A stretch of DNA of 64,000 bases from an uncultured Coxiellaceae bacterium (GCA_964194675.1 CAXMND010000044.1:5114-69113), one strand, 5' to 3'. Counted from the first letter of the stretch, positions 4,527 to 30,292 are shown. A program made the numbers and translations. The notes: generated by a model not told the origin, from the letters alone.

Positions 4527-4595
4527 TAACGTCAGTAAGGGTATCTGGCGGCAGGACGGCCAGGCAAGTTCCGCTTGAATCTCCGGATCTTCCGT

Positions 4596-5231
4596 TCAGA
4601 GCGGATTGGTGAGGAGCTGCATCGAGATCTGGAGGGCCAGCGAGTAATCGCCTTCCATCTTGAGCTTCCCGCCGAGGAAAAGCTCTTGGATCGTGAGCTC
4701 GCCACGGCGAACCGCCTCGAGGTCTGAGAACTGGAGCTCCGTGACAAAACCAGGCTCGGCTGGGACCTCAGGAACGTTGAAGGCTACCCGCAGGACCACG
4801 TCCCCCAACTCGGGAACACCCCTGATGGTCGCCTTGAAGGTCATGGGCTGCCCGGCGAGCGCGTCCTCGAACCGCTTGGACGCCGTTTGGGCCGCTCCGA
4901 CCGCCACTTCATCGTCCTCTAGGGCACCGGATTCAAGCGCCTCGCCGAGCAAAAGTTGAACCGCATCGCCAGGAATTTTGGCTGTCGCCCTGAGGGGGAC
5001 GCCTTCGGCTGGCTCGTCTCCCGCCGTCAGGGAGCCCCCGTCGCCCGATAGAACGATTGGCGGGTGGTCGTCGACCTCGAGGCGTACCGCCCCTGTCACT
5101 CCTTTGACGTCGGCAAGGATGCGCTGCGCCCGCTCGTCCCCAGCCGTGGCGCGGGCCTTAAGGACTTCCACTCCGCGGGTGAAGAGCTTTGGGAAGGTGT
5201 CTCGGAGGAACTCGATCGGTTGTATGGTCAT
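4596..5231 (-). CDS. SCP2 sterol-carrier-like domain protein
   Basis: C-terminal ELFLGGKLKMEGDYSLALQISMQLL matches the SCP2 fold signature. Start taken at ATG 5229-5231 (MTIQPIEFL); the ORF track extends to 5300. Confidence 0.7.
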   Translation of the reverse strand: MTIQPIEFLRDTFPKLFTRGVEVLKARATAGDERAQRILADVKGVTGAVRLEVDDHPPIVLSGDGGSLTAGDEPAEGVPLRATAKIPGDAVQLLLGEALESGALEDDEVAVGAAQTASKRFEDALAGQPMTFKATIRGVPELGDVVLRVAFNVPEVPAEPGFVTELQFSDLEAVRRGELTIQELFLGGKLKMEGDYSLALQISMQLLTNPL

Positions 5232-5278
5232 GAGCGGCGGAGTGTAGCCAAGAAGGCCACTCGCACCAAGCTGGCGAA

Positions 5279-7939: not shown

Positions 7940-7975
7940 TTGCGCATTTTCGGGCCCCAGGCCTAGCGTCGACCC

Positions 7976-8482
7976 ATGTCGAGACGAATCTGGTGGGCGA
8001 GCCTGTTGCTAGGACTGAGCGGCTGCTTGATACAGAACTTGAGTCCCGAAACAAGGCTTCGCGACGCAGTGATCGAGCTCAACGAGGGAGCGCGCTGGGG
8101 TCGAATGGACGTCGCGGCCGGTTACGTGTCGCCGGTGTTCCAGAACCAGTTTCGGTTGTCGCATGTGCGCTGGGGGCGGGACATCCAGATCGCGGACAGC
8201 GAGATCCTCGCTGTCAACGCCCACACCGAGGAAGATGGCTCGGGAGCGCTCTCCCGCGTTGCGATCCGCTGGTACGATCACGAGACAATGGTCATCGCGC
8301 AGACCGTAATCCGACAGGCATGGCAGAAGCACAAGCAAACGTTCCTGCTGGTCAACGAGTCCGTCGAGAATGGTCATCCGGGCCTGCTCGCGATTCCTCA
8401 ATTGGACCGGCCCGTCGAGGGACCCGTCGAAACCGAAGAGTATGAGGACTTCGACGACGCTCAGTGGAGCAGCGTCTACTGA
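7976..8482 (+). CDS. Hypothetical lipoprotein
   Basis: MSRRIWWASLLLGLSGC signal peptide with lipobox. 168 aa with an acidic C-terminus. No recognisable family. Confidence 0.6.
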   Translation: MSRRIWWASLLLGLSGCLIQNLSPETRLRDAVIELNEGARWGRMDVAAGYVSPVFQNQFRLSHVRWGRDIQIADSEILAVNAHTEEDGSGALSRVAIRWYDHETMVIAQTVIRQAWQKHKQTFLLVNESVENGHPGLLAIPQLDRPVEGPVETEEYEDFDDAQWSSVY

Positions 8483-8483
8483 C

Positions 8484-9473
8484 TCAGCCGACGCCCACCG
8501 CGCTCCGCACGCGCTGAATGGTCGCGTGGGCAATGGTGCGCGCCTTGTCTGCGCCGTCACTCAAGATCGCATCGAGCTTCGGCTCGTCAGAACGAGTCTC
8601 GATGTACGCTTCTCGCTTGGGGCCGATCTCGGCTTCGATCGCCTCGTAGAGTTCCTGCTTGGCGTGGCCCCAGCCGTAGCCGCCCGCTTCGAGCTTGTGC
8701 TTCATCTCGGGGGCCCGCTCCGGGGCGACGAGCTCGTAGAGATCATAGACGGTCGAGCCTTCGGCGGTCTTGGGATCGTCGAGCGACTCGGAGCCCGTGG
8801 TGATACTCATGATCACCTTTCGAAGCTTCTTGGGCGATTCGAAAAGGGGAATCCCGTTGCCGCCGCTCTTGCTCATCTTCTCGCCGTCGGTACCCGGTAC
8901 GAGGGGAGCCTCGGTGATCAACGCTTCAGGCACGACGAGCGTGTTCTCGCCGTAAATGTGGTTCAGCCGCATCGCGATGTCGCGAGTAAGCTCCAGATGC
9001 TGCTTCTGGTCCTTGCCAATCGGCACTACGTCAGTGTCGTAAAGAAGAATGTCGGCGGCCATCAGCAGCGGGTAGTTGAAGAGCCCAGCACTCGGTGAAT
9101 CGCCCCGTGCAAGCGCGTCTTTGTAGGCATGGCCGCGCTCGAGCTGGCCCTTCGCCAGCATACAGCTCAAGACCCATGTGAGCTCGAACACGTAGGACAC
9201 GGCGGACTGTCGGTAGAGCAAGGTGCGCTCCGGATTGAGACCGCAGGCAAGCCAGGTGGCCGCGACGTCACGAATGTAGCCTCTCAGCTGCCCTGCATCC
9301 CTAACGGTCGTGAGCGCGTGGTAGTCCGCAATGAAGTAGAGCGTTCGATACCGGTCGACGAGCGAGAGCGCGGGACGGATCGCACCGAGGTAGTTTCCGA
9401 GGTGCGGCAGGTGCGTCGGTTTGATACCGGTCAGTGACGTCTTCACCGGGCGGAGGGTGTCCCATGTGGACAT
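8484..9473 (-). CDS. trpS: Tryptophan--tRNA ligase
   Basis: TGIKPTHLPHLGNY (HIGH-type motif) and KMSKSGG (KMSKS). 330 aa from ATG 9471-9473 (MSTWDT); the ORF track extends further upstream to 9755. Confidence 0.9.
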   Translation of the reverse strand: MSTWDTLRPVKTSLTGIKPTHLPHLGNYLGAIRPALSLVDRYRTLYFIADYHALTTVRDAGQLRGYIRDVAATWLACGLNPERTLLYRQSAVSYVFELTWVLSCMLAKGQLERGHAYKDALARGDSPSAGLFNYPLLMAADILLYDTDVVPIGKDQKQHLELTRDIAMRLNHIYGENTLVVPEALITEAPLVPGTDGEKMSKSGGNGIPLFESPKKLRKVIMSITTGSESLDDPKTAEGSTVYDLYELVAPERAPEMKHKLEAGGYGWGHAKQELYEAIEAEIGPKREAYIETRSDEPKLDAILSDGADKARTIAHATIQRVRSAVGVG

Positions 9474-9503
9474 GCGCGGCAACCGGGGTAAGAACGCGGA
9501 ACC

Positions 9504-9977
9504 ATGACAGATCGTCCGTTCAAGGTCCTTGGCATCCAGCAAATCGCCGTCGGCGCGTCTGACAAAACGGCCCTCGTCCGACTGTGGGTCGACGCGCTCG
9601 GGCTGACACCCGCCGGAAATTTCCGAAGCGAACAAGAGAACGTCGACGAGGACATCGTCACGATGGGCGCTGGCGCATTCGCGGTCGAGGTCGACCTCAT
9701 GCAGCCGATCGATCCCGAGAAGAAGCCTAGGGTCGACAGCCCGCCTCTCAATCACGTCGGGCTATGGGTCGACGACATCGACGCGGCCGTGGAGTGGCTG
9801 AGCGCTCAGGGGATACGTTTCACGCCTGGTGGAATCCGCCCTGGTGCGGCCGGCCATCGCGTGTGCTTCATTCACCCGAAGGGCAACGAAGAAGCGCCAA
9901 TCGGTGGAGAAGGCGTCCTGATCGAGCTTGTCGAGGCTCCTGCGGAGGTTCGAGACGCGTTCGAGGCGCTAGGCTAG
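9504..9977 (+). CDS. VOC/glyoxalase-family protein (methylmalonyl-CoA epimerase-like)
   Basis: 157 aa. Paired beta-alpha-beta-beta-beta modules LGIQQIAVG... and [18 protein letters not shown]...VCFIHPKG...VLIELVE. Confidence 0.75.
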
Positions 9978-12079
9978 GGGCTGGGGTGCGCGAGCAGGAG
10001 CTTGCGGGCCATCTCGTACTCGTAGAAGCTGACCATTTGGGTATCGAGGACGCGTTGAAGCTGAGCGTTCGCCGCATCGTGATCGCCTGCTACGAAGAGG
10101 CGGGTGGCTTCGTAGAACAAGGCCTCGGTCTCCTCCCCGAGGCTCGAAGCTACGGTTAGAAGGTCGTCGTAGCTGATATCCTGAGCGCCGAAGCTGGCGA
10201 GCTTTCCCCACCAGTTGGCGGGCTGACCGAGCCGGCGAAGCAGCTCGGTGTGCTCGGGGCTCGGGGCCTGCTCGGCGCGCGCTGCGATGAACTGGAGCCA
10301 GAGGGTGAAATACACCTTCCATTCGGGCGGCAGGTTCAGCTGGAGTTGCGCGCGGCGCCAGACGGTCGATGCGAACTCGGGGTCGGGCTCGGCGACGACG
10401 AGGTGCGAAAGGATGGTGGCGTACACCTCTCGCCACTGGGGGGCGAGGGCCATCGCACTATGGAACGCATCGAGTGCTTCGTCGTGCCGGCCGAGATTGT
10501 CCAAGAGGACTCCGCGGCGTATCTCGACCAGCGCTGCGGTAGGCCCTTCGACGAGACCGACCGCCTCGCTCCATGCGACGAGCGCAGTCTCGTGGTTCGT
10601 TTTCATTTCGCGTGCGCGACCTTGAGCGCCCGCGGCGTTGCCAATGTGCTCGAGGATCTCTGCGCGATGGAGGGAATCGCTCAACGTATTCAAAGGGGTG
10701 AGTGCGAGAGCACGCTGATAGTAAACCTCTGCGCCTTTGGGGCGCCCGGTGCGCTCGAGAAGAAGGCCGAGTTGAAGTAACGCGTTGGAATTCTCGTCGC
10801 GAGCGATGCTTGCTTCGAACCGCTGCTCGGCCTCGTCGACATGGCCGGCGTTCATTTCCAGCATGCCGATCAAGAACTCGAGTTGGTCCGGCGCTATCGG
10901 AGGGGCCGAGTCGGGCCAGCGTTCGAGCCTTGCCGCGAGGATCTGCTCGGCACCGCGGGCCAGGGAGTTCGATCGCTCCGGATGGGGATCCATGAGACGA
11001 CTCTCGATGAACTCGTCGAGCTGGTCGAGCGCTTCGTCATAGAGCTCGATCATCTCCGGCGCCAGCTCGATCGCACTGACATACCAGGCAGTCGCGTCGG
11101 CGAATCGGCCCTCGTCGGCGGCGACGCGCGCCATGCAGCGGCGAAATCGGAAGTCTTTGGGGTATCGGCCGAGGGACGCGCGACAAAGGCCGGACGCGAC
11201 GTCCGGTCGAGCAACCGAAAAGCCTTCGACCAGCTCATAGGTGGCATCGGCGCCCTCCTTGTCTTGGCTCTTGGCGACCCGCAGAAGATCGAGCAACCGA
11301 ATCTGCAGATCGCCACCGGGACCCATGTTCTCGACCTGCGTGATGGCCGAGTCGACGTCGCCGTGAGTGAGGTATACGGCCGCAACATCGAGCGGTGCGA
11401 TCCTCCAGATGCGGTTGGTGATCGCCCCGTACTGGCCGCGGGCCTCCGATGACTCCGCGGAGAGAGCGTCGCGGCGCCCGATGTATAGAGTAGCGAGCGT
11501 GTCGAGGACTTCAGGAGCCGGTGTCAGATCGGCGTGCTCCGTCCAGACACCGAGAAGCTGGCCGTAGCGCGGAAGGACATCGTCCACTTGGCCGCGTGCC
11601 TCGAGGCCCCAGGTGGCGACTTCATCGTAGCCCTGCTGGTATCTCTCCTCCCCGGTGAGGCGCGCGAGGAGGAAATACGCCGCTAGAACACGCCCCTCGT
11701 CTCCGAGGCGCCCGCCGCGATCCACGACGAACGCCGCGATGGGCTCGAGGCCGTGGGGAAGCACTCCCGTTGCGAAATCGGACGACGTGAGGACATCGGT
11801 CAGTCGCTCGACTTGGACTACGACGCCTTCGTAATCGCCGATGTCGGCAAGGCTTTGAGCCTCGACGAGGATCGTAGCAATCAGTCGATCGCGAAGAGTG
11901 AGGCGCTCGGGGTCCGAGCTCGTCATCCGCATATACCGACGCGACTCGACGGGATATTCAGCTCGGGGGATCGGCTCGGCGCTTCGGACGAGGACCTGCC
12001 CGTTTGTCGCCGATCGCGAGTGCGCGCAGGCTGCCGTGAGGCTGAGCAGGCCAAGGATGAGGAGAGACCGAGTTCTCAT
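9974..12079 (-). CDS. TPR-repeat lipoprotein
   Basis: [18 protein letters not shown] lipobox. 701 aa with repeated A/Y/L-rich TPR-like helices (e.g. [13 protein letters not shown]). Its stop shares the CTAG at 9974-9977 with the convergent VOC gene. Confidence 0.7.
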
Positions 12080-18441: not shown

Positions 18442-18696
18442 ATGAAACTAGAAGACGAACAACTAGCTCTCTGTCTGTTGGAGACACTCTACGACCTCGG
18501 CCGGGCCGACATCCCTGCCACCCCCGAGGGACTTGCCAAATGGCTGAAAGCCCCGGAGTCCCAGGTCCAAGATCTACTAACCCGCCTAGACGCCCAAACC
18601 CTAGTCGACGCCTCCCACTGCCGTCTGACCATGCAAGGCCTAGTCCTAGCCCTCTCGATCGCCGGCACAACCAAATTTGCCAAGCATGCAGCGTAG
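18442..18696 (+). CDS. Small hypothetical protein, possible winged-helix DNA-binding fold
   Basis: 84-aa ORF in a visibly lower-GC patch. PATPEGLAKWLKAPESQVQDLLTRLDAQTLV resembles a wHTH recognition region. Weak call. Confidence 0.4.
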   Translation: MKLEDEQLALCLLETLYDLGRADIPATPEGLAKWLKAPESQVQDLLTRLDAQTLVDASHCRLTMQGLVLALSIAGTTKFAKHAA

Positions 18697-18755: not shown

Positions 18756-18839
18756 GCGGAAGTGGCGGAATTGGCAGACGCGCATGATTCAGGTTCATGT
18801 GAGGTAACACTCGTGGAGGTTCGAGTCCTCTCTTCCGCA
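18756..18839 (+). tRNA. tRNA-Leu (anticodon CAG), type II with long variable arm
   Basis: GCGGAAG...CTTCCGC acceptor stem, anticodon loop TTCAGGT, T-arm GGAGGTTCGAGTCCTCT. Strong resemblance to E. coli tRNA-Leu(CAG). No encoded CCA. Confidence 0.9.
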
Positions 18840-19019
18840 CCGTCCCCGCCATAAGGGCGACATTGTCTACGAGGATTTGACATACGGAGCACTCGGCCCC
18901 TGCGGGGCTTGTGTACCGGGTCTGTATTTTTTTCATAAGGTCTGCATGAAATGCGGGGTTTTGGGGTTCTTGTCGGGGCGGACTTGTTTGATTTCATATG
19001 CTTACGGGGTTTTTCGTTT

Positions 19020-19047: not shown

Positions 19048-19689
19048 GTGCTTGGGGAAGCTAGACATAGACTAGTTGGATTTACACTTGTGGAGCTGAT
19101 GGTCGTGCTGGCAGTGATGGGCGTGCTCGTCAGCGCTGCTTTGCCGAGCATTAGCGAAGGGTTCGCCGACCGGCGGGTGGCCATGGTCTCCCGCGAGGTC
19201 GTCGGCCTCTTTCAGCGCGCGCGATACATGTCGAGCGCATACGGACGCGCCCACCAGGTCGTCTACGACAACGACGCCGGCACCGGGCTCAGCGAACCCT
19301 TCGCCTTCGAGACGCTCCGGGGCACGGCCGGTGGGTGCTCGGTGAGCAGCTTCGAGAACGCCTCCAACATGAAGCTCTCCGACCTCGACTGCGACAACAC
19401 GAACCATTGGCGTTGCGTCGATCATCTCTATGCAAGCACGCACGACCCGGACCCGTCAGACAACGATCTCATTCGCGTAGACGGCTGGGGGGACACCACG
19501 TTTTGCTACGAGGCAGGATCCAACAACCAGGTGTTCATCGATACGGTGCTCTACACGAACTGGGATGCACCGAGGTCGCAAGCCGGTTTCGGCTTCGTCG
19601 TTTACCGCGACCTCGGTGGAAGGCCGATCGGTGTGGCGCGAAAGGTCTTGGTCCCGTCCGGCACGGGGTCGCCGAGGATCCTGCGATGA
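19048..19689 (+). CDS. GspH/FimT-like type IV minor pilin
   Basis: Prepilin motif G/FTLVELMVVLAVMGVLVSAALP (Gly-1, Phe+1, Glu+5), followed by RRVAMVSREVVGLFQRARYMS typical of GspH/FimT. Start uncertain: GTG 19048 gives a 9-aa leader, and the ORF track extends to 18877. Confidence 0.75.
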   Translation: MLGEARHRLVGFTLVELMVVLAVMGVLVSAALPSISEGFADRRVAMVSREVVGLFQRARYMSSAYGRAHQVVYDNDAGTGLSEPFAFETLRGTAGGCSVSSFENASNMKLSDLDCDNTNHWRCVDHLYASTHDPDPSDNDLIRVDGWGDTTFCYEAGSNNQVFIDTVLYTNWDAPRSQAGFGFVVYRDLGGRPIGVARKVLVPSGTGSPRILR

Positions 19690-20312
19690 AGCGCCCCGCA
19701 ACAGATGCCCCAGCAGGCTTCACACTGGTCGAGGTCATGATCGCGATCGGCATCATGACGGTCGGCTCACTCGGCATCCTTTCGATGCATCAGGCAGTGA
19801 CGCGTGCCAATCGGGAAGCGCGCGAAATGAATACCGCGCTCGCGATTACCGAGACCTGGATCGAGCGTGTGGAGCGCGACGCGTTGCTGTGGACCGCTCA
19901 AGGCTTCAACACCACCGAGCTTCAGGCCACCGCGTACCTCCAAACGATCGCCGGCGTCGCGGATGAAACCGCTTGGTTCAGGCCTGCCCCCACGCTCTCG
20001 ATGGAGTCTTGGGCCTTCGACTACTTCGGCGGCGACACGAGAACCACCGCGGACACCACGTACTGCGTCAATCTCAAGATGAGCTGGCTTCGACAGGGAA
20101 GCTCGGTGCGCGTCGACATTCGCACGTACTGGCTCCGCCCGGGCCACATGACCGGGACGCCGGCGCACTCGGACTGGGTCGCGGCGTCTGCCTTTCGTGG
20201 GGCAGGGTGTGCCGCAGGAACGGCCGATGGCTGGAACCTCGGAAGCGCCCCCAACGTGAACGTGATCTTCGCATCGACGGTGGTGACTTGGCTACGGAGG
20301 GACACGCCATGA
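19686..20312 (+). CDS. pilV: PilV-like type IV minor pilin
   Basis: MKRPATDAPAG/FTLVEVMIAIGIMTVGSLGILSMHQ prepilin N-terminus. ATGA overlap with the upstream gene at 19686-19689. Confidence 0.75.
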   Translation: MKRPATDAPAGFTLVEVMIAIGIMTVGSLGILSMHQAVTRANREAREMNTALAITETWIERVERDALLWTAQGFNTTELQATAYLQTIAGVADETAWFRPAPTLSMESWAFDYFGGDTRTTADTTYCVNLKMSWLRQGSSVRVDIRTYWLRPGHMTGTPAHSDWVAASAFRGAGCAAGTADGWNLGSAPNVNVIFASTVVTWLRRDTP

Positions 20313-21703
20313 GGCAAAGTGGGTTCACCCTAATCGAACTGATGATCGCCATGGTCGTGGGTCTGACCGCGGTCAGCTCGGTCTATGCACTCGGCTCGGC
20401 GATGAGTGAGCAGTTCTTCGTCGAGCAACGGGTGGCCTCTTCGCAGGGGACATCGCGGGTGGCCACCTTGGAGCTTCGGCAGGACATCTCACGCGCAGGA
20501 CTGTTTGGCACACCGAACGCTTATCTCCGACAAGGGGACACCGGTGTGGAGCGGTTCGAGCCCACCTGTGACGCCAATCGACCTGAGCTCCCGAAGCTTG
20601 GCGGCGGAAACGGTCCGATGGGTGCTTTTCAGTATTACGCGAACGAAGACATCGCGGTCCTGGACCCCGATAGCGTGAACGCGGGGGCACGAGCTGACCG
20701 GCTTCGCGTCCTCACCAGCATGTATCTCACCGAGCAACTTCTGGTGAACTCGACGAGCATCAACGGCGAGGTCATCGTGTTGCAAACCGGCAACCAGGCA
20801 TACCGGCGAACATTTGCCTGGGGAAACACGGCGGGCCCGTTCACGAGCGGCCAAGCGCCCGACTACCTCCCGGGCACCCTGAACTGGGACAGCGCATGGG
20901 GCAGCGAAACCGGGAGCTGGAAGGGCATCGGAATGCGGGGCGCACGAGCCTTCCAAAGCGGCTCGGTCCTTCACATCGAGACCCCCGAAGGGCGTCACTT
21001 CTTTCGATCGGTGTACGGAAAGGGCAGCAACGTACAAAACCAAATCCGGCTGGTACTCCCGTCGGGAGACGGGTTGCCGATCGGCACGTCATGCCTTCCC
21101 GGTGCCGCCGAGGGCTCCATGATCGCGCCGCTTCAGTGGGTGGAATACGCCATCGTCGACCCCTTCGACCCGGCCGATACTTCCAACACGGACGACTTTC
21201 TCAAGTTCGACGGCATCTTCTTCGGCGACCTTTCCGATGCGGACAGTCCCATCCACGACGTCTATGCGCTGACAGAGGCCGACCTGCTCGAGGCTCCAAA
21301 TCGGGTGCTGGTCCGTCGGATCTTGGACGCCACCAATGGGTCGGTGAAGGCGAACTCGACGCAAGTCGTCGCGGAATTCGTCACGCACTTCGAAGTGAGC
21401 TTCATGATCGACGCCAACTCCGGCTCGACGACATCGGCTGCGCCGCCAACCCTCAGCCACCAGAAGGGGTCGACGGCCGAAACGACGGTCAACGGCAATC
21501 CCGAGCGCGTGCGCTCGGTCATCATCGACCTCGGCATCCGTAGCCCGCTCGAAGATCCATCCCTCGAATACAATGGCGACGTCGACGCGGGTATCGTTCC
21601 GACGCGCTTTGAGGTGAACAAGGATAGCAAGGGCTCGGCCCGCGTGCGGCATCTACGGATCGAGATCCCGGTGATGAGCGTCGCTAGGAGGAATCTCGGA
21701 TGA
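20309..21703 (+). CDS. pilW: PilW-like type IV minor pilin
   Basis: MRQSG/FTLIELMIAMVVGLTAVSSVYALG, then ...LELRQDISRAGLFG typical of PilW. 464 aa. ATGA overlap at 20309-20312. Confidence 0.75.
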   Translation: MRQSGFTLIELMIAMVVGLTAVSSVYALGSAMSEQFFVEQRVASSQGTSRVATLELRQDISRAGLFGTPNAYLRQGDTGVERFEPTCDANRPELPKLGGGNGPMGAFQYYANEDIAVLDPDSVNAGARADRLRVLTSMYLTEQLLVNSTSINGEVIVLQTGNQAYRRTFAWGNTAGPFTSGQAPDYLPGTLNWDSAWGSETGSWKGIGMRGARAFQSGSVLHIETPEGRHFFRSVYGKGSNVQNQIRLVLPSGDGLPIGTSCLPGAAEGSMIAPLQWVEYAIVDPFDPADTSNTDDFLKFDGIFFGDLSDADSPIHDVYALTEADLLEAPNRVLVRRILDATNGSVKANSTQVVAEFVTHFEVSFMIDANSGSTTSAAPPTLSHQKGSTAETTVNGNPERVRSVIIDLGIRSPLEDPSLEYNGDVDAGIVPTRFEVNKDSKGSARVRHLRIEIPVMSVARRNLG

Positions 21704-22377
21704 AGCATCCTCGCAAACAGGAAGGCGCAGTCCTTTTCGTGGTCCTGATGATCGTGATGGTGGGCACCGCAAGCGCGGTGTTCTCGGCCAACACCGTGTC
21801 GCACGAGGTTCGGGGCACTGGTTTCGCGCGTCAGCAAATGCAAACGAGATACGCCGCGAAGGCCGGCCTCGCCGCCGCCATGGATTGGTTCGACATTTTC
21901 GGTCCGGAAACGGTGCGAAACTTGATGCTCGCCCCGGGAAGCACCCAGGGGGTCACATTCAGCTGCGCCAGCGGCGGCACCTGTTACCCGGAGATCCCGA
22001 TGGCCAACGGTCGCCGCGCGTATCGGCTCTACCCGGAGCACTTTTCGAAGTTGCTGGCCGCCGGCGGAGGGCCAGGGTTGCTGGTCAACGTACCCTACGA
22101 ACAGGGCTCGTCGTTTGGAACTTACACAGCGCTGACCCCGATCGTGACGATCGACATCTACGACGAGCACATCCTCAGCAAGCTGGCACCGGGCGCTGCG
22201 GCCCAGGGCGGCTCCAAGTTCAAGTATATGCGGACCACGCTCACGGCTCGGGCGCGGGCGCGGGTGAGCGCCGGTGACGTCGCCCTCGAAGCCGCAGACC
22301 AAGCCCGTGAGCGCAACGAAACCGGCGCCGACTTCCGCGCCTACATCATAAGTGGGCCATTCGTCACAGGATCATGA
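21700..22377 (+). CDS. pilX: PilX-like minor pilin / pilus assembly protein
   Basis: N-terminus GAVLFVVLMIVMVGTASAVFSANTVSHEVRGTGFARQQMQTRYAAKAGL matches the PilX N-terminal pattern. ATGA overlap at 21700-21703. Confidence 0.7.
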   Translation: MKHPRKQEGAVLFVVLMIVMVGTASAVFSANTVSHEVRGTGFARQQMQTRYAAKAGLAAAMDWFDIFGPETVRNLMLAPGSTQGVTFSCASGGTCYPEIPMANGRRAYRLYPEHFSKLLAAGGGPGLLVNVPYEQGSSFGTYTALTPIVTIDIYDEHILSKLAPGAAAQGGSKFKYMRTTLTARARARVSAGDVALEAADQARERNETGADFRAYIISGPFVTGS

Positions 22378-25300
22378 TGCGGATTTCATTTCACATAGCA
22401 CTTGGACTTCTTCTTTTCGCGGCGCTCGGGCTAGGTGGAGATGTCGCTGCGCAGGCGCCGGACATCCGGAACATTCGTCCGCACGTCGTCCTCCTGGTCG
22501 ATACTTCGGGTTCGATGGAGCGAAAGCCGAATTGTCTCTGCGTCACTCCCGCCTGCTTGGAGTGTCTCCCGGTCTGTAGCGGGGTGACATTCGAGCAGAA
22601 CCGCTGGTCGGTCGTCGCCCAGGCGCTCACCGGAGAGTTCTCACCGTTCGAGTGCAGCTCCGAAAACCGAATCGGGGGTATCTACTCCGGCCAGTACGAC
22701 GAAGGGTACTTCCTTCCGCACATACTGTTACCTCAAGAGATCGGGGCGTACACCGGCTCCCAAAACGGCAACGGCGTCCTCGACATCTACCTCGAGCGCA
22801 TCAAGTTCGGTCTGATGACGTTCGACTCGGTCGGGACCCTGAGCGACCAGCCTCCGCTCGTCACTCAGACCGTTTTCCAGACCGCCCCGTTCCCGACCGA
22901 GTCCGTGGGAACGAAGGGTATGTACTCCTTCGGAGCCGACGCGCCTTTCTCGTTCCCGGGCGCCCTGGCGACGTACATGATCAACGCGGGAGCTCGATCG
23001 GCGTCTGCCACAGAAGGCGGCCTTGTCACCGTCGGCGGCGATAGCACGGCCGCGATGACCGCAACCAATGACTCCATCCAAGCGACGATTCTCGGAGATG
23101 CGGGCCTCGGGAAGAATCCCCTGCGGCCGTTCGGTTCGACGCCGACGGCAGCCATGGTGACCGACCTCCAGGTGTTCGTGCAGACCGACAACGACTTCAT
23201 CGAGAAAACTGCAGATCCCGGCCCGGGTGACGCTTACTACAATTGCCGCAACAAGGCCGCGGTCCTGATCACCGACGGTTTCCCGAATGGCGACATGCGC
23301 GGAAGCCCGGTGTTCTGCGAAGCGCTAGGCCAGCCGGTCGGCGCTACGGGCTGCCCCTACGAGGAAATCCAGACGACGGTCGCGGCGATGATCGCGGCCG
23401 GAGAGCTCGATGAGTTCTACGTCATCGGGTTTGCACTCGATGGCGACCCCGCCGAGGTAGCCGCCGTCGAAGCCCTGCTCGACGATATCGCGTCAGTCGG
23501 TGGAACGACTGAAGCCTTTTTCGTTGCGGATCGGGCGGAACTAGTGACCGCCCTGAGCACCATTCTCAACGAGCAGAACCCGGGCGCCACCAGCCGCACG
23601 GCCCCCGTGGCGACCGGCCTCTCGCCGGGCCTCATCGAGTCCGAGTTCATTTCGGGGTTCAGGGCATCGTTGGGTGTGACGGATCCTTGGGACGGAATTC
23701 TCGAGCGACGCCGCGTACTCTGCGTCGGGACGCCCCCCGTGCCGGTCGAGCAGACGGTTGTCGACTCGGATCGCTTCCAGCTGGTGCTCAACAACCAGTC
23801 GTCCCCTCCGGGAAATGTCGAGCCCTTCGGCTCGGGCAACGGTGTAGCCTTCACCGGCGGGTTCTCGAGGAATCTCTGGACGGTGTTGCCCTCTGACCCC
23901 GCAGACGTCAACAAGCACCTCGTCGGCAATGGCAAGAGCAAGATCACTGCACTCGGCGACGACGGCATCGACGTCCCCCCGGATTCCGGCCTCGAAATCC
24001 GGAACGTGCCGGTCGGCGAGCTCAACACGTCGATCAATCCCGAGTACTTCTTTGGGGTGGGGAGCGTCGATACCGCGCAGCGGACGACACTGGTGAACTA
24101 CATTCACGGCGTTGCCGGAAGCGGAAGAGAAAACGAGCGTCTCGGCGACATCTACCACTCCACCCCAGCCATCGTAGGCCCGCTTGTCGACGACCTCGAC
24201 GACCAAACCTACAACGATTGGCGGCTCGGCCTCGCGCACCAGCTTAGCCCGGATCCACTGGAAGCTTCCCCGCCCGACTGGCTGCTCAGCCGCCGTCCGC
24301 GCGTGATCTACGTATCGACCAACGACGGCGTCATTCACGCGTTCCTCGCGGATGACTATGCAGCGAGCACGTTCACCGCGGGCGCCAACCTCGACGAGTT
24401 CCAGTGCGCGGACGGCAAGGCCGCTGGTACAGAACTCTGGGGTTTCATTCCGCCGATGTTCCTGGACGATCTCGACAACCTGCTTTCGGGAGGCAGCAAG
24501 CAGTGGTTTGCCGACGGCAACATCGTGATCCGCAATCTCTACGACGTCCGCAAGTTCGCCGAAGACGACGGGGGCGGCAGCACGATCGATTCGGCCGCCA
24601 GCAATACCAACGTCTGGCGCACGGTGATGTTCCTCAGCTTCCGAAACGGGGGCAATGGCATGGTCGCGCTCGACGTGACCAACCCCTGTAAGCCCGAGTT
24701 CCTTTGGCAGTTCACCGATGCTGACCTCGGCAACACCTACGGCCAGCCGACCGCAGCCCAGGTCTTCCTCGAAGACAACGACCCGCTGCCGGTCTCCGGC
24801 GGTGCCGGCGGTCCGATCGTGTTCAAGCCACGACAGTCCCATGCTGTCATCATTCTCCCGGGCGGGCAGGGCGTCGAAGATGCGGCTGCGAGCCCCTGCT
24901 CGTTCGTATCGGGCCCAGCCTTTCCGGAGGGCATGGACGAAGCGGACGATGTCACGACGATCACGCCGAGATCGGACCGGCGTTGCTGGCGAGGCTCTAC
25001 CTCTGTGCCGGCAGCGACTCCAACCGGACGCGCGCTCTACTTCATCGATCTGGCAACGGGATCGATCATCGAAAAGATGGACGAGAACGACTTCCCCGCG
25101 CCTCTCAACGGCGGCGTGTCGGTGTTCCGAGGTGATACGGGAACGGTGGGAAGCGCGGTCTACACGGTAGATGCCGACGGGGTTCTCTGGCGCATCGACA
25201 TGGCGCCTTCGGATCCAGAGGACTGGACCGCCGAGGCGCTGCACGACATGTACTATGCGGACTCTTTTGACGAGGCCGAGCCGACCTATTATCCTCCCGC

Positions 25301-25973
25301 GCTCACGATCGACAGGTCGGGGAACATCGTGATTCTGCTCGGCACCGGCAACATCGACGTGCTCGATGATGCCACCGCAAAGAACCGGGTCGTCTCGATC
25401 ACCGAGAAACTCACCTTCGACGGCAGTGGCAACATCAGCACGCTCGAGGGGCGGCTCAACTGGGAGATCGTTCTCGACGATGGTGAGCAGATGACCGGAC
25501 CCATCGAGCTCTTCGGAGGCCAAGGGTTCTTCGGGTCGTTCAAGGCCGCCGGCGTCAATCCGATCAACGCCTGTGGCATCGGCGGTAGCCGAATCTTCGG
25601 TGTGGACTTCTTGGATGATCCAGCAAGCCCAGGAACGTTGGTGCCACTGCTGGTGGATGCGATGAGCAATCCTGCAACGAACCTCGATGGCACCGACATC
25701 GCCGACCTGCAGAACTCGCTGGTCGTTGGGCTCCAGGTTGCCCAGCAACCGGTGTGTACGTCCCTGTCCTCGGTCCTAGTGACCGATCCCTTCGGTAGTT
25801 CCTTCACCTTGGCGATGCCGGTCAATACGAGCGGACGCGAGTTCAAGCTCATGGCTCACCTCAGCGGCTCGGGGACGCCCGTCAGCGGGCTGTCGATCGA
25901 TGTCCTCAGCGAAACGATTACGGCACCCGAGATGTTCACGACGGTCTCCGGCATGGCCGAGACACTGGAGTAA
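22374..25973 (+). CDS. pilY1: PilY1-like pilus tip adhesin with N-terminal von Willebrand A domain
   Basis: 1199 aa with a signal peptide. vWA MIDAS VVLLVDTSGSM (DTSGS at 22500-22514) and LITDGFPNGD. PilY1/PilC signature LGDIYHSTPAIVGP followed by a beta-propeller-like C-terminal half. ATGA overlap at 22374-22377. Confidence 0.8.
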   Translation: MMRISFHIALGLLLFAALGLGGDVAAQAPDIRNIRPHVVLLVDTSGSMERKPNCLCVTPACLECLPVCSGVTFEQNRWSVVAQALTGEFSPFECSSENRIGGIYSGQYDEGYFLPHILLPQEIGAYTGSQNGNGVLDIYLERIKFGLMTFDSVGTLSDQPPLVTQTVFQTAPFPTESVGTKGMYSFGADAPFSFPGALATYMINAGARSASATEGGLVTVGGDSTAAMTATNDSIQATILGDAGLGKNPLRPFGSTPTAAMVTDLQVFVQTDNDFIEKTADPGPGDAYYNCRNKAAVLITDGFPNGDMRGSPVFCEALGQPVGATGCPYEEIQTTVAAMIAAGELDEFYVIGFALDGDPAEVAAVEALLDDIASVGGTTEAFFVADRAELVTALSTILNEQNPGATSRTAPVATGLSPGLIESEFISGFRASLGVTDPWDGILERRRVLCVGTPPVPVEQTVVDSDRFQLVLNNQSSPPGNVEPFGSGNGVAFTGGFSRNLWTVLPSDPADVNKHLVGNGKSKITALGDDGIDVPPDSGLEIRNVPVGELNTSINPEYFFGVGSVDTAQRTTLVNYIHGVAGSGRENERLGDIYHSTPAIVGPLVDDLDDQTYNDWRLGLAHQLSPDPLEASPPDWLLSRRPRVIYVSTNDGVIHAFLADDYAASTFTAGANLDEFQCADGKAAGTELWGFIPPMFLDDLDNLLSGGSKQWFADGNIVIRNLYDVRKFAEDDGGGSTIDSAASNTNVWRTVMFLSFRNGGNGMVALDVTNPCKPEFLWQFTDADLGNTYGQPTAAQVFLEDNDPLPVSGGAGGPIVFKPRQSHAVIILPGGQGVEDAAASPCSFVSGPAFPEGMDEADDVTTITPRSDRRCWRGSTSVPAATPTGRALYFIDLATGSIIEKMDENDFPAPLNGGVSVFRGDTGTVGSAVYTVDADGVLWRIDMAPSDPEDWTAEALHDMYYADSFDEAEPTYYPPALTIDRSGNIVILLGTGNIDVLDDATAKNRVVSITEKLTFDGSGNISTLEGRLNWEIVLDDGEQMTGPIELFGGQGFFGSFKAAGVNPINACGIGGSRIFGVDFLDDPASPGTLVPLLVDAMSNPATNLDGTDIADLQNSLVVGLQVAQQPVCTSLSSVLVTDPFGSSFTLAMPVNTSGREFKLMAHLSGSGTPVSGLSIDVLSETITAPEMFTTVSGMAETLE

Positions 25974-25978
25974 AAGCG

Positions 25979-26509
25979 ATGCCCGAACTGCGGCCACTCT
26001 TGCTCACCTCGTCATTGCTGCTCATGTCATGCCGTTCGGAGGCTGTGGAGGCGCCGCCACCCGCACCCAGTGCCCCCGAGCCGGTGACTGCCGAAGAAGC
26101 GCTGCCCAAACCTCAGGAAATTGTCTACATCTACGACGCGAAAGGAGCGCTGATCCCGTCGGACGACTTCGTCGTAGGGGTTCGGCTTCCTCGTGGCCTC
26201 AAGCTCTTTCTAGAGCAAGAGGGCCTCCACGTGTACCGAATCCAGGCGCCGATCGCGAAGGTGCTCAACTATTTTGGTCCGATGTTGATCACTGGCAAGG
26301 TCGAACGGCAAGGAAAGGGCGCCGTCTATCGCAACGCGAGCGTCCGTGGCGGAGAGGTCAACCCCACCAAAGTCGACGTGTCGATCCTGGAGGTCGGCAG
26401 CCGCCTGACACGCGTGTCGATCACCGAGCTTCCACCCCCGCCCGCGTATCCTCCGCCTCAGAGCGAAACGCTCCAACGAGCGCGGCGCGATTTTCAACGG
26501 CTCGACTAA
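25979..26509 (+). CDS. Hypothetical lipoprotein, last gene of the pilY1 operon
   Basis: ATG 5 nt after the pilY1 stop. LLLTSSLLLMSC lipobox, Pro-rich linker, 176 aa, no recognisable family. Confidence 0.55.
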   Translation: MPELRPLLLTSSLLLMSCRSEAVEAPPPAPSAPEPVTAEEALPKPQEIVYIYDAKGALIPSDDFVVGVRLPRGLKLFLEQEGLHVYRIQAPIAKVLNYFGPMLITGKVERQGKGAVYRNASVRGGEVNPTKVDVSILEVGSRLTRVSITELPPPPAYPPPQSETLQRARRDFQRLD

Positions 26510-27528
26510 AGCCCGCGATACGCGGCGAAGGTACACTGAACCGTGCCCGTCCCGAGAGCATCCGTCACCACCATGCCGGTCGACACACGACCGGGATCAT
26601 CCATCCGCCCCAAGCGTTCGACTAGCGAGGCGACCCGTCGCGCCCAGACACGGCTGCGAAGCTCGGGAACGGCTACCTGGCAAGCGACGGGCCCATGGGG
26701 AAACGCTTCGAGCAAGCCGTGAAAGCGTTTCACGGTGGCCGAGGACACCCGGCCCGAAGCCGTGAAGAAACGCTCGGAACGAACGATCACGCTCGTGTTG
26801 GTGCGATCCGCCATGAAACCCGTGACCAGCGCCGTCTCGATCAGCTCGGCCGCGGCGCCTTGAAGTGGTTCGGGCCACTCAGCGCGCATGTCGCCGATCA
26901 GAGCTTCGGTTTCGAGGAGCAGCGTCTCTGCCCGCTTCGCGGACTTTGGGTACCGCCGCTCGATCGAGTTGGCTCGCTCGTCGAGCGGGTGGAGCTCGCC
27001 TTTCTCCGCGCCGAGCGCCTCCGCAAGCGCTAGGTTAAGCCTGACCCGGGTGAGGAGAGCGGCGACGATTTCCTCGGTCGACCCGCGGTCCGATACGGGG
27101 GAGAGTCGCTCCGCCTCTTTCAGCGCCACGGACCGTGCCGCGTAGCGAGAAATGTCCTGCGCGACGATTCCTGCGGCGCCCTGGTCCCGCGCCAGCTGCT
27201 TTGCCCACCGCTCTTCCTCGGCTTGAAGCTCGATGCGGCGACGATCGAGCTCCACACGCCTGGCCTCGGTGGCCGCCGCCGCCAGCCACAACCGCGCCTC
27301 GGTCCGGAAGTCACCGGCTGCCTCCTCATCGCCGTCCCGTTCCGCCTGGTCTGCCGCTGACCAGGCGGTTTCCGCATTGCGATGGAGATCGGGAGCGAGC
27401 TCCTTCGCAAGATCGGCCGCCGGCGACGCGAAGAGGGCGTCCGAAGCGGACGGGGTCTGCTGCGCGGCACAAGCCGTCAGGACCGCGCAAGCGCCAACGG
27501 CCACTAGAACAACGAACAGGTAACGCAT
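26506..27528 (-). CDS. Lipoprotein with DUF4398-like helical region and possible degenerate OmpA-like C-terminus
   Basis: MRYLFVVLVAVGACAVLTAC lipobox. Charged helical region with E/R/A repeats. The C-terminal FFTASGRVSSATVKRFHGLLEAF...RRVASLVERL loosely resembles OmpA_C (inference). The start overlaps the upstream stop by 1 nt (TAATG at 27526-27530). Confidence 0.5.
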   Translation of the reverse strand: MRYLFVVLVAVGACAVLTACAAQQTPSASDALFASPAADLAKELAPDLHRNAETAWSAADQAERDGDEEAAGDFRTEARLWLAAAATEARRVELDRRRIELQAEEERWAKQLARDQGAAGIVAQDISRYAARSVALKEAERLSPVSDRGSTEEIVAALLTRVRLNLALAEALGAEKGELHPLDERANSIERRYPKSAKRAETLLLETEALIGDMRAEWPEPLQGAAAELIETALVTGFMADRTNTSVIVRSERFFTASGRVSSATVKRFHGLLEAFPHGPVACQVAVPELRSRVWARRVASLVERLGRMDDPGRVSTGMVVTDALGTGTVQCTFAAYRGL

Positions 27529-28046
27529 TAGGGCGACTCCGCTGCGCGTGCCAACTCCGCACGCTCACGCATGAGTGCCTCGAGCACGCGGCGCTGCGCA
27601 TGGGCACGGTCACGAACGCTGCTCAGTCGTCGCTGCGTTTCAAAGAGCTCGGCCTGGGAGCGTCTTCGGTCGAGCTGACGACCCGCCAACACCATCGCGG
27701 CGTCGGCGATCTGTTGAGCACGCGCTGCGGCAAGAGGGTCTTCGATGGGACCGCTCGCGCTGTCGAGCGCGCGTCTGGCTTGTTGGAGAGCGCCCTTGGC
27801 GTACTTGGCGTCCTCCCGGGCTTCGAGGTCTCCGAGACGTCGCTGAAGCTGAGCAGTTCGCGCACGAAGCCCCCCGTCAGCCGACACGTTCAGGGTCGCA
27901 CCCACAGCCAACAAGCCGACGAGAACCGCGGATCTGAGGGTTCGGCTACCGATACGTGAAGCGAAGCTCGTAGTCGCAAATGCGATAAACGTCGCCTTCT
28001 TCGATGCGCTTGGATTCGACACGTTGCTCCGCGAATTCGATTCCAT
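27528..28046 (-). CDS. Hypothetical coiled-coil (DUF4398-like) protein
   Basis: ORF 27528-28046. Signal/TM-like LRSAVLVGLLAVGATLNVSA, then helical AKYAKGALQQARRALDSA. The only in-frame starts before the hydrophobic segment (ATG 28046, GTG 28022) overlap the FHA gene 3' end by 77-101 nt, so the start is uncertain. Confidence 0.45.
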   Translation of the reverse strand: MESNSRSNVSNPSASKKATFIAFATTSFASRIGSRTLRSAVLVGLLAVGATLNVSADGGLRARTAQLQRRLGDLEAREDAKYAKGALQQARRALDSASGPIEDPLAAARAQQIADAAMVLAGRQLDRRRSQAELFETQRRLSSVRDRAHAQRRVLEALMRERAELARAAESP

Positions 28047-28581
28047 TCGTGCTGCCCAAGTCTTTCATGAAGTAGACACCGTCGTGAAATACCACCGCTG
28101 CGTGTCGACGCGAAATATTGCCGTCACGAATCGCGAGATCCGCACTCTTGGTGCCCCGCCCGATGATGAACTCATCTTTTTCGATCGGGAAATCCTGGCC
28201 GTTGAACACCAACACGAGCACGCGGCGCGAGACCGCATCGGAAGGCCGGTGACCTGGCAGCGGAGGTGGCGCGGTCGGGAGTCTTGTAGGCATCGGTGTG
28301 AGCAGAGGGGTCGGGCGCGCTTGCGCGACTGGCCGTGGCTGAACCGGGGGTTGGGGGACTCCCCCAGCACCATCTCCGGCGGCAACGGCCGAGCCGAGCG
28401 CTTGCTGTGCGCTCAGGCTGGCCACCGCATGATCGCGGGACCGAGCGTATTCACGCATGGCTTCGTTGATGAGGTAGTCGACCGAACATTCCAGCTCGTC
28501 GCTCAGCCGATCGTAGATCTCAAACAGATAGTCCCGGCATTGAAATGCCCGCACTGTTTTTCTGTCGCCCTGATCAGCCAT
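27946..28581 (-). CDS. FHA-domain protein with N-terminal ribbon-helix-helix-like region
   Basis: C-terminal FHA signature FIIGRGTKSADLAIRDGNISRRHAAVVFHDGVYFMKDLGSTNG. N-terminal KTVRAFQCRDYLFEIYDRLSDELECSVDYLINEAMREYA resembles CopG/Arc RHH. Pro-rich linker. Confidence 0.8.
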   Translation of the reverse strand: MADQGDRKTVRAFQCRDYLFEIYDRLSDELECSVDYLINEAMREYARSRDHAVASLSAQQALGSAVAAGDGAGGVPQPPVQPRPVAQARPTPLLTPMPTRLPTAPPPLPGHRPSDAVSRRVLVLVFNGQDFPIEKDEFIIGRGTKSADLAIRDGNISRRHAAVVFHDGVYFMKDLGSTNGIEFAEQRVESKRIEEGDVYRICDYELRFTYR

Positions 28582-28589
28582 CTCGTCGA

Positions 28590-30137
28590 CTACTTCTGGT
28601 TGTCACCCTGTTCACGTGTCTGCACTACATCGATTGCCGCCCTGGCGACATCTCCAACTTGTTTGGCTGGAGGGTTGAGCTCGGACCAGCCTTCTCCCGC
28701 CACTTCCGTCGTGTCCGCCATCAATCGCTTCATAGCAGGGACATCTGCCGCCCCGCCTCTGCGTTCAAGATAGCGCAACGCGACGACACGATTCCACCAA
28801 TGTTCGGAATCGAGGAGCCCGAGGACCGTCGATGTAGGCGGAGGTGTCATCTGGCTCATCCGGGTGGCGTACCCCTCCAGCTCTTCTGGCTCGTATTGAA
28901 TCCCCACAGCTGTCGGTAATTGTTGAGAAAATTTCTCTATCTTGGCGGATCCACCCAGGGAGAGCACCAGCTCGCCGGCCCTCCAGCGAAGCCGTTTGTC
29001 CAACCTCGCTGCCGAGGTGCAGGAGGCCGCAGTACAGCCCGTTCGCTCGACCAGGGGCCAAAGACGGGGAATTGCGCGCCGGCTGCGGATGTCACCAACT
29101 CGGTCGAAAGCGTAGTCACGAACCTCGATCGAGTTGCCTGGGTCGAGTGCGATCGACAGCAAACGGTTCAATTGTGCGCGGCTGACGTGTCCCTCAAGAG
29201 CACGAAGGGCGGTTGCACGCCGCGCGTTGAGTCGCTCAGCCCAAGCCTTGCTGTCGTTCGGTCCCGGCTTGGTATCCGCGATCCGCAGTAGGCGGGCCGA
29301 CACGATTTCCTGATCGGCAAGGTACTTCATCGCCGGAAGCGCTCCGTTGTTGATGTAGTTCTCACGGTTGTAGACCGCGACCAACGACACACGCGGATTG
29401 TCCACCGGCTCGCCCGCGGCTTCGAGCGACTTCCGGATCGCGGCGCTCAGCCACTGCACGAAGCGCGGCTTTTCCATATCCTTTTCGATCTCGACGAGGC
29501 GTTTGGCGGCGCGTTTCTTGGTCTCTTCGTCCCCATCGTCGCCGATGATCTCTGCGATCTTGATCATCGCCTGCGGGGCCATCTTCTCGTGGAGGGCGTC
29601 GACGAGCATGCCGGCCGCGTCAGCCCCGAGAGCACGGGTTACCTGCTCGGCGCTATAGTCGCCGGCAAGGCTTCTCCCCTCGAAGTCACGGGAATACCAA
29701 CCCACGACCGATCGGGTGAGGGCGGTTCGCGACTCTTCGGGTGCATACGGAATAACCATGTAAGCAGCGTCTTTCGCGCGCACCTGCGCTTGAAGGGCGC
29801 CGTCGTCACTCGACTCGGACTCTTCGGCGAGGAGCGCCTCGAGGCGTGGGACCATGCCCGCGACGATCATTTCGCTGGCCTGCGGATCTTCGCGACGAAG
29901 CTCGTCGAGCGCTTGTTTGAGCAGACCGAGGCCGCTCACCTCATTGCGATCCATCTCGACGATCGCGAGCGCCGCTTGGGTTCGAAGGTCGTTTGAGTAA
30001 TGGTCGCTTCCGATGACGGCCATGAGCCGGGCCGGGCCTTTGACGGTCCCCTTCCACATCTCGATGCTGTCACTATCCGCCTTGCAGCCGGCCAACAATA
30101 AAGCGACCGCAGAGCAAATAAGCACGATCTTGCTCAT
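28590..30137 (-). CDS. HEAT/armadillo-like repeat lipoprotein
   Basis: MSKIVLICSAVALLLAGC lipobox (ATG 30135-30137; the ORF track extends to 30179). All-helical repeat protein with recurrent RxxAxxALxxL motifs. Confidence 0.6.
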   Translation of the reverse strand: MSKIVLICSAVALLLAGCKADSDSIEMWKGTVKGPARLMAVIGSDHYSNDLRTQAALAIVEMDRNEVSGLGLLKQALDELRREDPQASEMIVAGMVPRLEALLAEESESSDDGALQAQVRAKDAAYMVIPYAPEESRTALTRSVVGWYSRDFEGRSLAGDYSAEQVTRALGADAAGMLVDALHEKMAPQAMIKIAEIIGDDGDEETKKRAAKRLVEIEKDMEKPRFVQWLSAAIRKSLEAAGEPVDNPRVSLVAVYNRENYINNGALPAMKYLADQEIVSARLLRIADTKPGPNDSKAWAERLNARRATALRALEGHVSRAQLNRLLSIALDPGNSIEVRDYAFDRVGDIRSRRAIPRLWPLVERTGCTAASCTSAARLDKRLRWRAGELVLSLGGSAKIEKFSQQLPTAVGIQYEPEELEGYATRMSQMTPPPTSTVLGLLDSEHWWNRVVALRYLERRGGAADVPAMKRLMADTTEVAGEGWSELNPPAKQVGDVARAAIDVVQTREQGDNQK

Positions 30138-30292
30138 CCAACCCATTTGGCTCGCGAACCAATCCCCCGGAGCATGCAACCCGTGAGGATAATAGAGGAT
30201 TCAACCAGGCGATCAAGAGGCTGTAACAAGCGTGATTTCTTGACGAATCCAACCCGCGGCGAATAGCCTTCGCAATGTAGGAGGCCTCTTAC

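Follow-up and report, generated by a model that had tools for sequence, protein, structure and literature searches.

In Myxococcus xanthus, four minor pilins together with PilY1 constitute the priming complex of the resting type IVa pilus machine, a "short stem and plug" (Treuner-Lange et al. 2020, PMC7541494). A survey of 67 Myxococcota genomes described the genes of pilY1 clusters as translationally coupled, named TfcP (cluster 1) and MXAN_1370 (cluster 3) as additional coupled genes of M. xanthus and gave a pilY1 cluster lying apart from pilQPONM as the usual layout in Polyangiales (Mahanta et al. 2026, PMC13190605). TfcP itself is a non-canonical, periplasmic cytochrome c, which PilY1.1 needs for its stability and which does not become part of the machine (Herfurth et al. 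2022, PMC8833165). In Pseudomonas aeruginosa, the small gene that follows pilY1, pilY2, is listed as required for piliation (PMC10191384). Here, we describe a six-gene operon located at positions 19048 to 26509 of a 64-kb stretch of DNA (GCA_964194675.1, CAXMND010000044.1:5114-69113; 64,000 nucleotides, referred to as the window), which encodes four minor pilins, a PilY1-class protein and a lipoprotein of an undescribed family. The best explanation overall, to which we assign a probability of roughly 60%, is a type IVa pilus tip operon in which the lipoprotein acts as a dedicated periplasmic helper of PilY1. The operon type itself is already known; what is new is a widespread family of lipoproteins, so far undescribed, that is locked to a divergent PilY1 class of the VWA type lacking the calcium motif, a conserved control region with sigma-54-type and apparently near-leaderless features, and the presence of the module in Sandaracinus amylolyticus DSM 53668.

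As in the M. xanthus minor pilin/PilY1 clusters 1 to 3, the genes for four minor pilins and for PilY1 are coupled here and lie away from the machine genes. M. xanthus PilY1.3 has an N-terminal vWFA domain, to which the VWA-like N-terminal region of the PilY1 described here may correspond, and an extra coupled gene is present, as in clusters 1 and 3. However, in contrast to the M. xanthus clusters, PilY1 is divergent in this operon, with 16 cysteine residues and a propeller that lacks the calcium motif, and the extra gene encodes a lipoprotein of a different family. The operon also resembles fimU-pilVWXY1Y2E of P. aeruginosa in its order (FimU/GspH-like, PilV, PilW, PilX and PilY1) and in a PilY1 with VWA-like and propeller parts, but it has no pilE-like fifth pilin and carries a sigma-54-type promoter, whereas the P. 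aeruginosa operon is under FimS-AlgR control. The six genes are as follows (positions in the window; a slash within a peptide marks the prepilin cleavage site):

19048-19689, plus strand: minor pilin 1, FimU/GspH-like by position, 213 aa; GTG start; leader MLGEARHRLVG/FTLVE; PF07963 23.6 bits (cut-off 21.2)
19686-20312, plus strand: minor pilin 2, PilV/GspI-like, 208 aa; AG/FTLVE; N_methyl 25.4 bits; ATGA overlap with gene 1
20309-21703, plus strand: minor pilin 3, PilW/GspJ-like by size and position, 464 aa; SG/FTLIE; N_methyl 30.4 bits; ATGA overlap with gene 2
21700-22377, plus strand: minor pilin 4, PilX/GspK-like, 225 aa; EG/AVLFVVL, without Glu+5; ATGA overlap with gene 3
22374-25973, plus strand: PilY1-class tip adhesin/priming protein, 1199 aa, type I signal peptide; PF05567 35.7 bits (cut-off 28.1); ATGA overlap with gene 4
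25979-26509, plus strand: lipoprotein of an undescribed family, 176 aa; lipobox LLMS-C18; from the open reading frame (ORF) call and sequence reading

The ORFs were read from the sequence of the 64-kb window, and all six, spanning 19048 to 26509 on the plus strand, have a high third-position G+C content, as in real genes, in a window of approximately 62% G+C. The 4-nt ATGA overlaps fall at 19686, 20309, 21700 and 22374, and the stop codon of the pilY1-like gene (TAA, 25971-25973) is followed after a gap of 5 nt by the ATG of the lipoprotein gene at 25979. This direct reading bore out an earlier note on the same DNA, which had reported the six-gene layout, the four ATGA junctions and the 5-nt gap. 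That note had also called the operon "stand-alone, fully translationally coupled", which is true here but not special, being typical of Myxococcota pilY1 clusters; given the survey's layout and coupling, a stand-alone, coupled operon is ordinary (PMC13190605).

Next, the position of the lipoprotein gene was compared among loci. It follows pilY1 directly in 46 species-level genomes and in the metagenome loci L001-L006 and L054, where the contig reaches, and in the related clade it lies directly 3' of pilY1, on the same strand, in every locus with sufficient contig reach (52/52). A 4-nt overlap joins the lipoprotein and pilY1 genes in L001-L006, L054 and L059, and in all other loci with gene calls the distance between them is at most 81 nt. 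Nevertheless, approximately 20 kb is collinear in the related clade (PMT, tRNA, operon, 340-aa gene, FHA, HEAT and FtsK), so that synteny within the clade alone could reflect relatedness. The pairing also holds where the flanks change. The six-gene module, including the four pilins, is set amid unrelated flanking genes in S. amylolyticus CP011125.1 (L053), L055 and L056, and L058 and L059, which are cut upstream, keep the pilY1-lipoprotein pair but have other genes downstream of it; in all five of these loci, a PilY1 homolog of 30 to 38% identity lies immediately upstream of the lipoprotein homolog. In a reciprocal test, two PilY1 homologs (36 to 39% identity) were picked, and in both loci (L060 and L061) the next gene encodes a protein of 174 or 175 aa that belongs to the lipoprotein family, matching profile A2 with E values of 5e-45 and 2e-52. 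In total, seven loci (L053, L055, L056 and L058-L061) keep the pairing with different or mostly different flanks. The earlier note had made its proposal of a PilY1-specific accessory factor depend on synteny with pilY1 in relatives, and this synteny was observed in every related locus with enough reach as well as in the seven loci with changed flanks. Overall, these results indicate that the lipoprotein family is genetically locked to this PilY1 class.

Co-variation between the proteins was evaluated with mirror-tree correlations over 28 loci, controlled for the FtsK, HEAT and FHA distances. The partial r between the lipoprotein and the five pilus proteins ranged from 0.22 to 0.58, that between the lipoprotein and the adjacent, opposite-strand 340-aa gene was -0.04, and the pilus proteins gave 0.50 to 0.80 with PilY1. 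This pattern suggests, weakly, that the lipoprotein may belong to the module.

The lipoprotein consists of a lipobox, a linker of approximately 30 residues rich in Pro, Ala and Glu, a domain of approximately 110 residues and, after a PPPP stretch, a C-terminal helix whose last two residues are LD. The linker is predicted to be disordered, and the conserved alpha+beta domain comprises four strands, a helix and four further strands. Cys18 is the sole cysteine and is invariant in the close family, and a lipobox-like motif was found in 242 of 272 full-length members, as predicted for bacterial lipoproteins. A profile search of 1.84 billion representatives gave 233 clusters at 50% identity (E up to 0.001), and a word-indexed search gave 145 clusters at 90% identity; nearly all members are 160 to 195 aa long and share the same architecture, with a strongly conserved core. 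The conserved residues include G-x-L-x-S, LPRG and YFGP motifs. The only names attached to the family are Myxococcota metagenome-assembled genomes and Sandaracinus amylolyticus, a cluster look-up of distant members yielding "Myxococcales bacterium" at most. The last residue is Asp in all of the close members (120/120) and Asp or Glu in 236 of the 272 full-length members; in the window, the codon of this Asp176 occupies 26504-26506, and such C-terminal conservation is unusual (family members P0001-P0288).

No Pfam or NCBIfam model matched the lipoprotein, and none in Pfam matched 22 distant members; a profile search of the PDB likewise gave no sequence match. The protein lacks a CxxCH haem motif and has no cytochrome match in Pfam or PDB. 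Its AlphaFold2 model has a predicted local distance difference test (pLDDT) score of 80.9 overall, mostly above 90 over residues 50 to 176, and Foldseek returned nothing below an E value of 0.01 against the PDB. The weak top matches were small alpha+beta domains of lipoproteins, namely, DcrB, Flpp3 and the BamC N-domain, which resemble the protein in carrying a sheet-plus-helix arrangement on a lipid anchor; however, these matches all have E >0.01 and a query-normalised template-modelling (TM) score of 0.33 or less, which gives no evidence of homology or shared function. An identity as PilP, PilF/Tgl or a GspS/AspS pilotin was rejected, given the lack of Pfam and NCBIfam matches and of any such protein among the 50 best weak Foldseek matches, and it is also disfavoured by context, the gene never lying beside pilMNOPQ in the loci read.

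The PilY1-class protein was identified by sequence and by predicted fold. In addition to its match to PF05567, it aligns in three collinear segments with PDB 3hx6, the C-terminal domain of P. aeruginosa PilY1 (E 1.6e-10). Its AlphaFold2 model, built with 22 homologs, has a pLDDT of 75.9 and a predicted TM score of 0.73, and its top Foldseek match in the PDB is again 3hx6 (E 2.3e-12, probability 1.0, target-normalised TM 0.50). The gene adjoins pilX and other minor pilin genes in the window and in every locus that is long enough. Two parts of the protein are of particular relevance:

22479-23582, plus strand: VWA-like N-terminal region of PilY1; metal ion-dependent adhesion site (MIDAS) D43-x-S45-x-S47, T149, D301; Cys-rich insert C54, C56, C61, C64, C68
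24129-25547, plus strand: beta-propeller (PilY1 domain); three segments aligned with 3hx6

The MIDAS residues and the five cysteines are invariant in 22 PilY1 homologs, down to 40% identity, and the N-terminal region is modelled by AlphaFold2 as alternating strands and helices. The sole Pfam VWA match is a weak one, to VWA_CoxE (15.3 bits, cut-off 26.4), and the propeller dominates the Foldseek ranking obtained with the whole protein. Therefore, where the earlier note had let its reading of the large protein hang on matches to PilY1/PilC and VWA models, the PilY1/PilC part stands, through PF05567 and through 3hx6 in both sequence and predicted fold, while the VWA part is borne only by the invariant MIDAS motif, the VWA models themselves giving no significant match. 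The five-Cys insert, ERKPNCLCVTPACLECLPVC, occupies PilY1 residues 49 to 68, directly after the MIDAS DxSGS, and probably forms a disulfide-bonded or metal-binding knuckle beside the metal site.

As mentioned above, this PilY1 class is divergent, and several members do not exceed the Pfam threshold. An EF-hand-like calcium motif, Dx[DN]xDGxxD, which is present in PilY1 of P. aeruginosa, Kingella and Neisseria and in M. xanthus PilY1.1 and PilY1.2, was not found in the propeller of gene 5, where the loop that is homologous to the calcium site in P. aeruginosa has the sequence GDTGTVGSA. The motif is important in other PilY1 proteins, and M. xanthus PilY1.3 also lacks it at the C terminus (PMC8833165); its absence is therefore no bar to PilY1 membership.

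The first three genes encode type IV pilins (PF07963/TIGR02532 class), as seen from their PF07963 matches and from the basic leader followed by Gly, Phe+1 and Glu+5; the earlier note's Gly-1/Phe+1/Glu+5 motif in these proteins was thereby recovered by motif reading and by above-threshold N_methyl matches. Gene 4 lacks Glu+5, as in GspK/PilX-type subunits. The individual names that the earlier note had given (GspH/FimT, PilV, PilW and PilX) agree with the order and sizes of the fimU-pilV-pilW-pilX-pilY1 arrangement, and on single proteins they rest on order, size and subthreshold matches: TIGR01708 GspH for gene 1 (29 bits, cut-off 80), TIGR02523 PilV for gene 2 (36.5 bits, cut-off 52.2), and PilX_N (20.9 bits, cut-off 25.5) and the GspK N terminus (19 bits, cut-off 130) for gene 4. 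Gene 3 had no family-specific match among curated models or in a PDB profile search. Thus, no Pfam or NCBIfam model supports the FimU, PilV, PilW and PilX assignments above its cut-off, and PDB profile searches with the four minor pilins recovered the shared N-terminal helix only or nothing (nothing for gene 4). A six-frame scan of the 64 kb found class-III signal motifs in genes 1 to 3 only, and Pfam revealed no pilin, prepilin peptidase or pilBCMNOPQ gene among the other called genes of the window, a few short ORFs being unscanned; the remaining Pfam-scanned genes are housekeeping and signalling genes. The six-frame and Pfam scans are in agreement with the earlier note, which had reported no major pilin, prepilin peptidase or pilBCMNOPQ in the window.

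Taking this evidence together, we favor a sigma-54-dependent operon that would come from an uncultured Polyangiales-type myxobacterium and whose first five genes, by homology with M. xanthus and P. aeruginosa, would encode the complex that primes a type IVa pilus and forms its tip. The earlier note had assigned such gene sets to this complex, and the N_methyl, PF05567 and 3hx6 matches support that assignment. The four minor pilins would sit in the inner membrane with PilY1 on top, its C-terminal propeller docking on the pilins. The VWA/MIDAS domain would be the adhesive end, plugging the vestibule of the secretin in the resting machine and then riding at the pilus tip. The product of gene 6 would be a lipid-anchored periplasmic protein on a flexible tether, which may bind PilY1 or the PilY1/minor pilin complex in the periplasm and fold, stabilize or position that complex before or during assembly of the machine, staying behind in the cell when the pilus extends. 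It would thus be a functional analogue, and not a homolog, of TfcP. Like TfcP, it is a small exported protein encoded in a pilY1 cluster. Unlike TfcP, a haem protein that is soluble, carries a type I signal peptide and acts via the PilY1 calcium site, it is lipid anchored and lacks CxxCH; the two share no relation in sequence or fold, and the partner PilY1 here has no calcium motif. We consider it quite probable that the lipoprotein is functionally part of the module, and the more specific role of a dedicated, membrane-tethered periplasmic helper of PilY1, which is drawn by analogy, is a tentative suggestion.

Several observations weigh against this explanation. A single family member, in L057 (ERZ26696514 ctg196009, gene 4365-4901), has no pilY1 within 4.3 kb upstream, where a UbiB-like gene and two genes without assignment are found instead. 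Its contig comes from a long-read assembly of 1.5x coverage, so that either a true orphan copy or an error of assembly may be involved. The mirror-tree value between the lipoprotein and PilY1 is 0.34, which is no stronger than with the minor pilins and carries no significance test. The fold of the lipoprotein offers no functional clue, and its location in the inner or outer membrane is not readable from the sequence. Finally, the activity of the operon as a pilus module is assumed, no pilus machine genes of this organism having been seen.

The alternative that survives best takes the lipoprotein to be, instead of a PilY1 partner, a component or assembly factor of the envelope machine, such as a pilotin-like secretin helper anchored in the outer membrane or an element of the alignment complex, which would be encoded with the tip genes for coregulation only. 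Pilotins and PilP, too, are small lipoproteins with a long tether. The residue at position +2 after the lipid-modified cysteine is mostly S, T or G across the family, and these residues favor outer-membrane sorting in Escherichia coli, a rule of uncertain validity in myxobacteria. Moreover, the strongest mirror-tree partner of the lipoprotein is not PilY1. However, in the loci read, the gene never lies beside pilQ or pilMNOP and instead tracks pilY1 through rearranged neighborhoods, and Foldseek gave no significant PDB match and no PilP, PilF/Tgl or GspS/AspS pilotin among the 50 best weak matches. We therefore regard such a machine role as unlikely.

A second possibility is that the lipoprotein is a sixth subunit or regulator, namely, a membrane-tethered cap by which PilY1 would be held in the periplasm at its VWA/MIDAS adhesin end, the C-terminal acidic residue of the cap perhaps entering the MIDAS metal site as a pseudo-ligand. 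The adhesin would then be kept silent and parked under the secretin until extension pulls it away. We judge this decidedly unlikely; if true, it would be a new principle for the control of a pilus tip adhesin.

It could also be argued that the lipoprotein is a functionally unrelated passenger kept behind pilY1 by operon inertia, given that nothing among its domains, motifs or structural matches links it to pilus biology and that the L057 homolog stands without pilY1. Nevertheless, the linkage outlasts the replacement of both flanks while both genes have diverged to approximately 29 to 40% identity, the intergenic distances stay between -4 and 81 nt, and the lipoprotein co-varies with the pilus genes and not with the other adjacent gene, all of which makes a passenger very unlikely. 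Finally, it is highly improbable that the module serves another type IV filament, such as the tip of a type II secretion pseudopilus with an unusual cap, since PilC/PilY1 caps type IVa pili and is absent from type II secretion systems (PMC10191384) and since a pilY1 cluster apart from pilQPONM is usual in Polyangiales (PMC13190605), even though the pilins match the GspH, GspI/GspJ and GspK models about as weakly as FimU, PilV and PilX, the window has no pilus machine genes, and the type II secretion clusters of Polyangiales carry pilin-like genes of their own (PMC13190605).

Upstream of the favored tip operon, an alignment of 17 loci revealed conserved elements that may control its expression:

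18922-18948, plus strand: conserved upstream element, consensus CTGTAATTTTTTCATAG..CCGCA; approximately 75 to 100 nt before the promoter; alignment of 17 loci
18988-19005, plus strand: second conserved upstream element, consensus TGATTTCAG.TA.TTAG; conserved in the 17-locus alignment, with a similar string in L060
19021-19035, plus strand: sigma-54-type -24/-12 promoter GGTACGGAGGTTGCA, GG-N10-GC with TTGCA; sole match to GGYAYGNNNNTTGCA in the window

The sigma-54 consensus used has GG at -24 and GC at -12 with a spacing of 10 nt (TGGCACG-N4-TTGCW), and the 64 kb contains one match to GGYAYGNNNNTTGCA, against 0.12 expected by chance. The motif precedes the conserved GTG in all of the related loci (31/31); 29 of them have it at -27 and the other two at -28 and -33, respectively, and GG(A/T)AC-N5-TTGCA also occurs before the first pilin gene in L053, L055, L056, L060 and L061. 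A scan for sigma-70 promoters and terminators gave background levels only. These observations suggest that the operon is transcribed from a sigma-54 promoter. Since the GTG at 19048 comes 13 nt after the end of the GC in the -12 element and G/FTLVE has no alternative in-frame start ahead of it, the mRNA would be leaderless or nearly so, and we infer that gene 1 is translated from a near-leaderless message. The start codon of gene 1 was not given in the earlier note, to which the GTG is thus added. Two other starts for gene 1 were rejected: the in-frame ATG at 18946, which lies upstream of the conserved promoter, and the downstream ATG within ELMVV, used by some annotators, which would remove the conserved G/FTLVE cleavage motif. 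The codons of G/FTLVE vary synonymously between loci.

The promoter and the two elements upstream of it stand out in the alignment as blocks of invariant columns, the intergenic DNA around them having diverged. Strings similar to the element at 18922-18948, TTTTC.TA....CGCA, lie upstream in L053, L056, L060 and L061, and this element is a candidate site for a sigma-54 activator protein or IHF. The window holds three sigma-54 activator genes, at 37918-39735 (minus strand), 50475-51923 (plus strand) and 55813-57183 (plus strand), one of the FHA-GAF type and two of the response-regulator type, together with GGDEF, GGDEF-EAL and hybrid kinase genes. These activators are candidates for the one acting on the operon, although genes of this kind are numerous in myxobacteria. 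The pilY1.1 and pilY1.3 clusters of M. xanthus have promoter regions to which the NtrC-like HsfA binds (PMC9109919), so that activator control of pilY1 clusters has precedent.

Regarding the surroundings of the operon, the following feature lies upstream:

18756-18841: tRNA-Leu, just upstream of the operon (Rfam; the sole Rfam match)

An 84-aa ORF (18442-18696, plus strand), which could encode a small regulator, lies between a PMT-family glycosyltransferase gene and this tRNA gene, and an 86-aa ORF is called at its place in L001, L003, L005 and L054. In L032, L039 and L044, the upstream PMT-family glycosyltransferase gene is missing, and genes for RelA/SpoT and a 138-aa protein lie directly next to the operon. 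Even within the clade, the conserved block thus varies in its upstream limit, while the six genes stay together. On the downstream side, a 340-aa protein with a lipobox of its own (VLTAC) is encoded at 26506-27528 on the minus strand, convergent on the lipoprotein gene, and since the stop codons of the two genes overlap (CTAA), there is no space for a terminator. This gene adjoins the operon in the close clade only and is absent in L053, L055, L056, L060 and L061. It is followed by an opposite-strand block (27528-30179, minus strand) that encodes a protein of 172 aa, one of 211 aa with an FHA domain and one of 529 aa with HEAT repeats and is collinear with the operon across L001-L052. In L053 and L059, too, there are HEAT-repeat genes close to the module, but tblastn found no homology between them and the HEAT gene of the window.

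The full module is also present in a cultured organism. In S. amylolyticus DSM 53668 (L053, CP011125.1:487270-507800), positions 3354-10531 of the locus encode four pilins, a PilY1-like protein of 1144 aa and the lipoprotein. The 2026 survey, which used an E-value cut-off of 1e-5, lists this strain without a pilY1 cluster (PMC13190605). Its PilY1 scores 21.7 bits on PF05567 (E 1.1e-4), below the cut-off of 28.1, and this low score probably explains why the cluster was missed, if the other profiles of the survey scored similarly. Profile-based surveys therefore undercount this PilY1 class.

The folding of PilY1, its stability and its placement on the minor pilin complex are poorly understood, and TfcP is the only dedicated helper that has been described. 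With the module present in the cultured, fully sequenced DSM 53668, the question of a helper is open to experiment. If the lipoprotein does act as proposed, it would represent a second, unrelated helper family, suggesting that pilus tip adhesins commonly need private periplasmic partners and providing a handle on that step.

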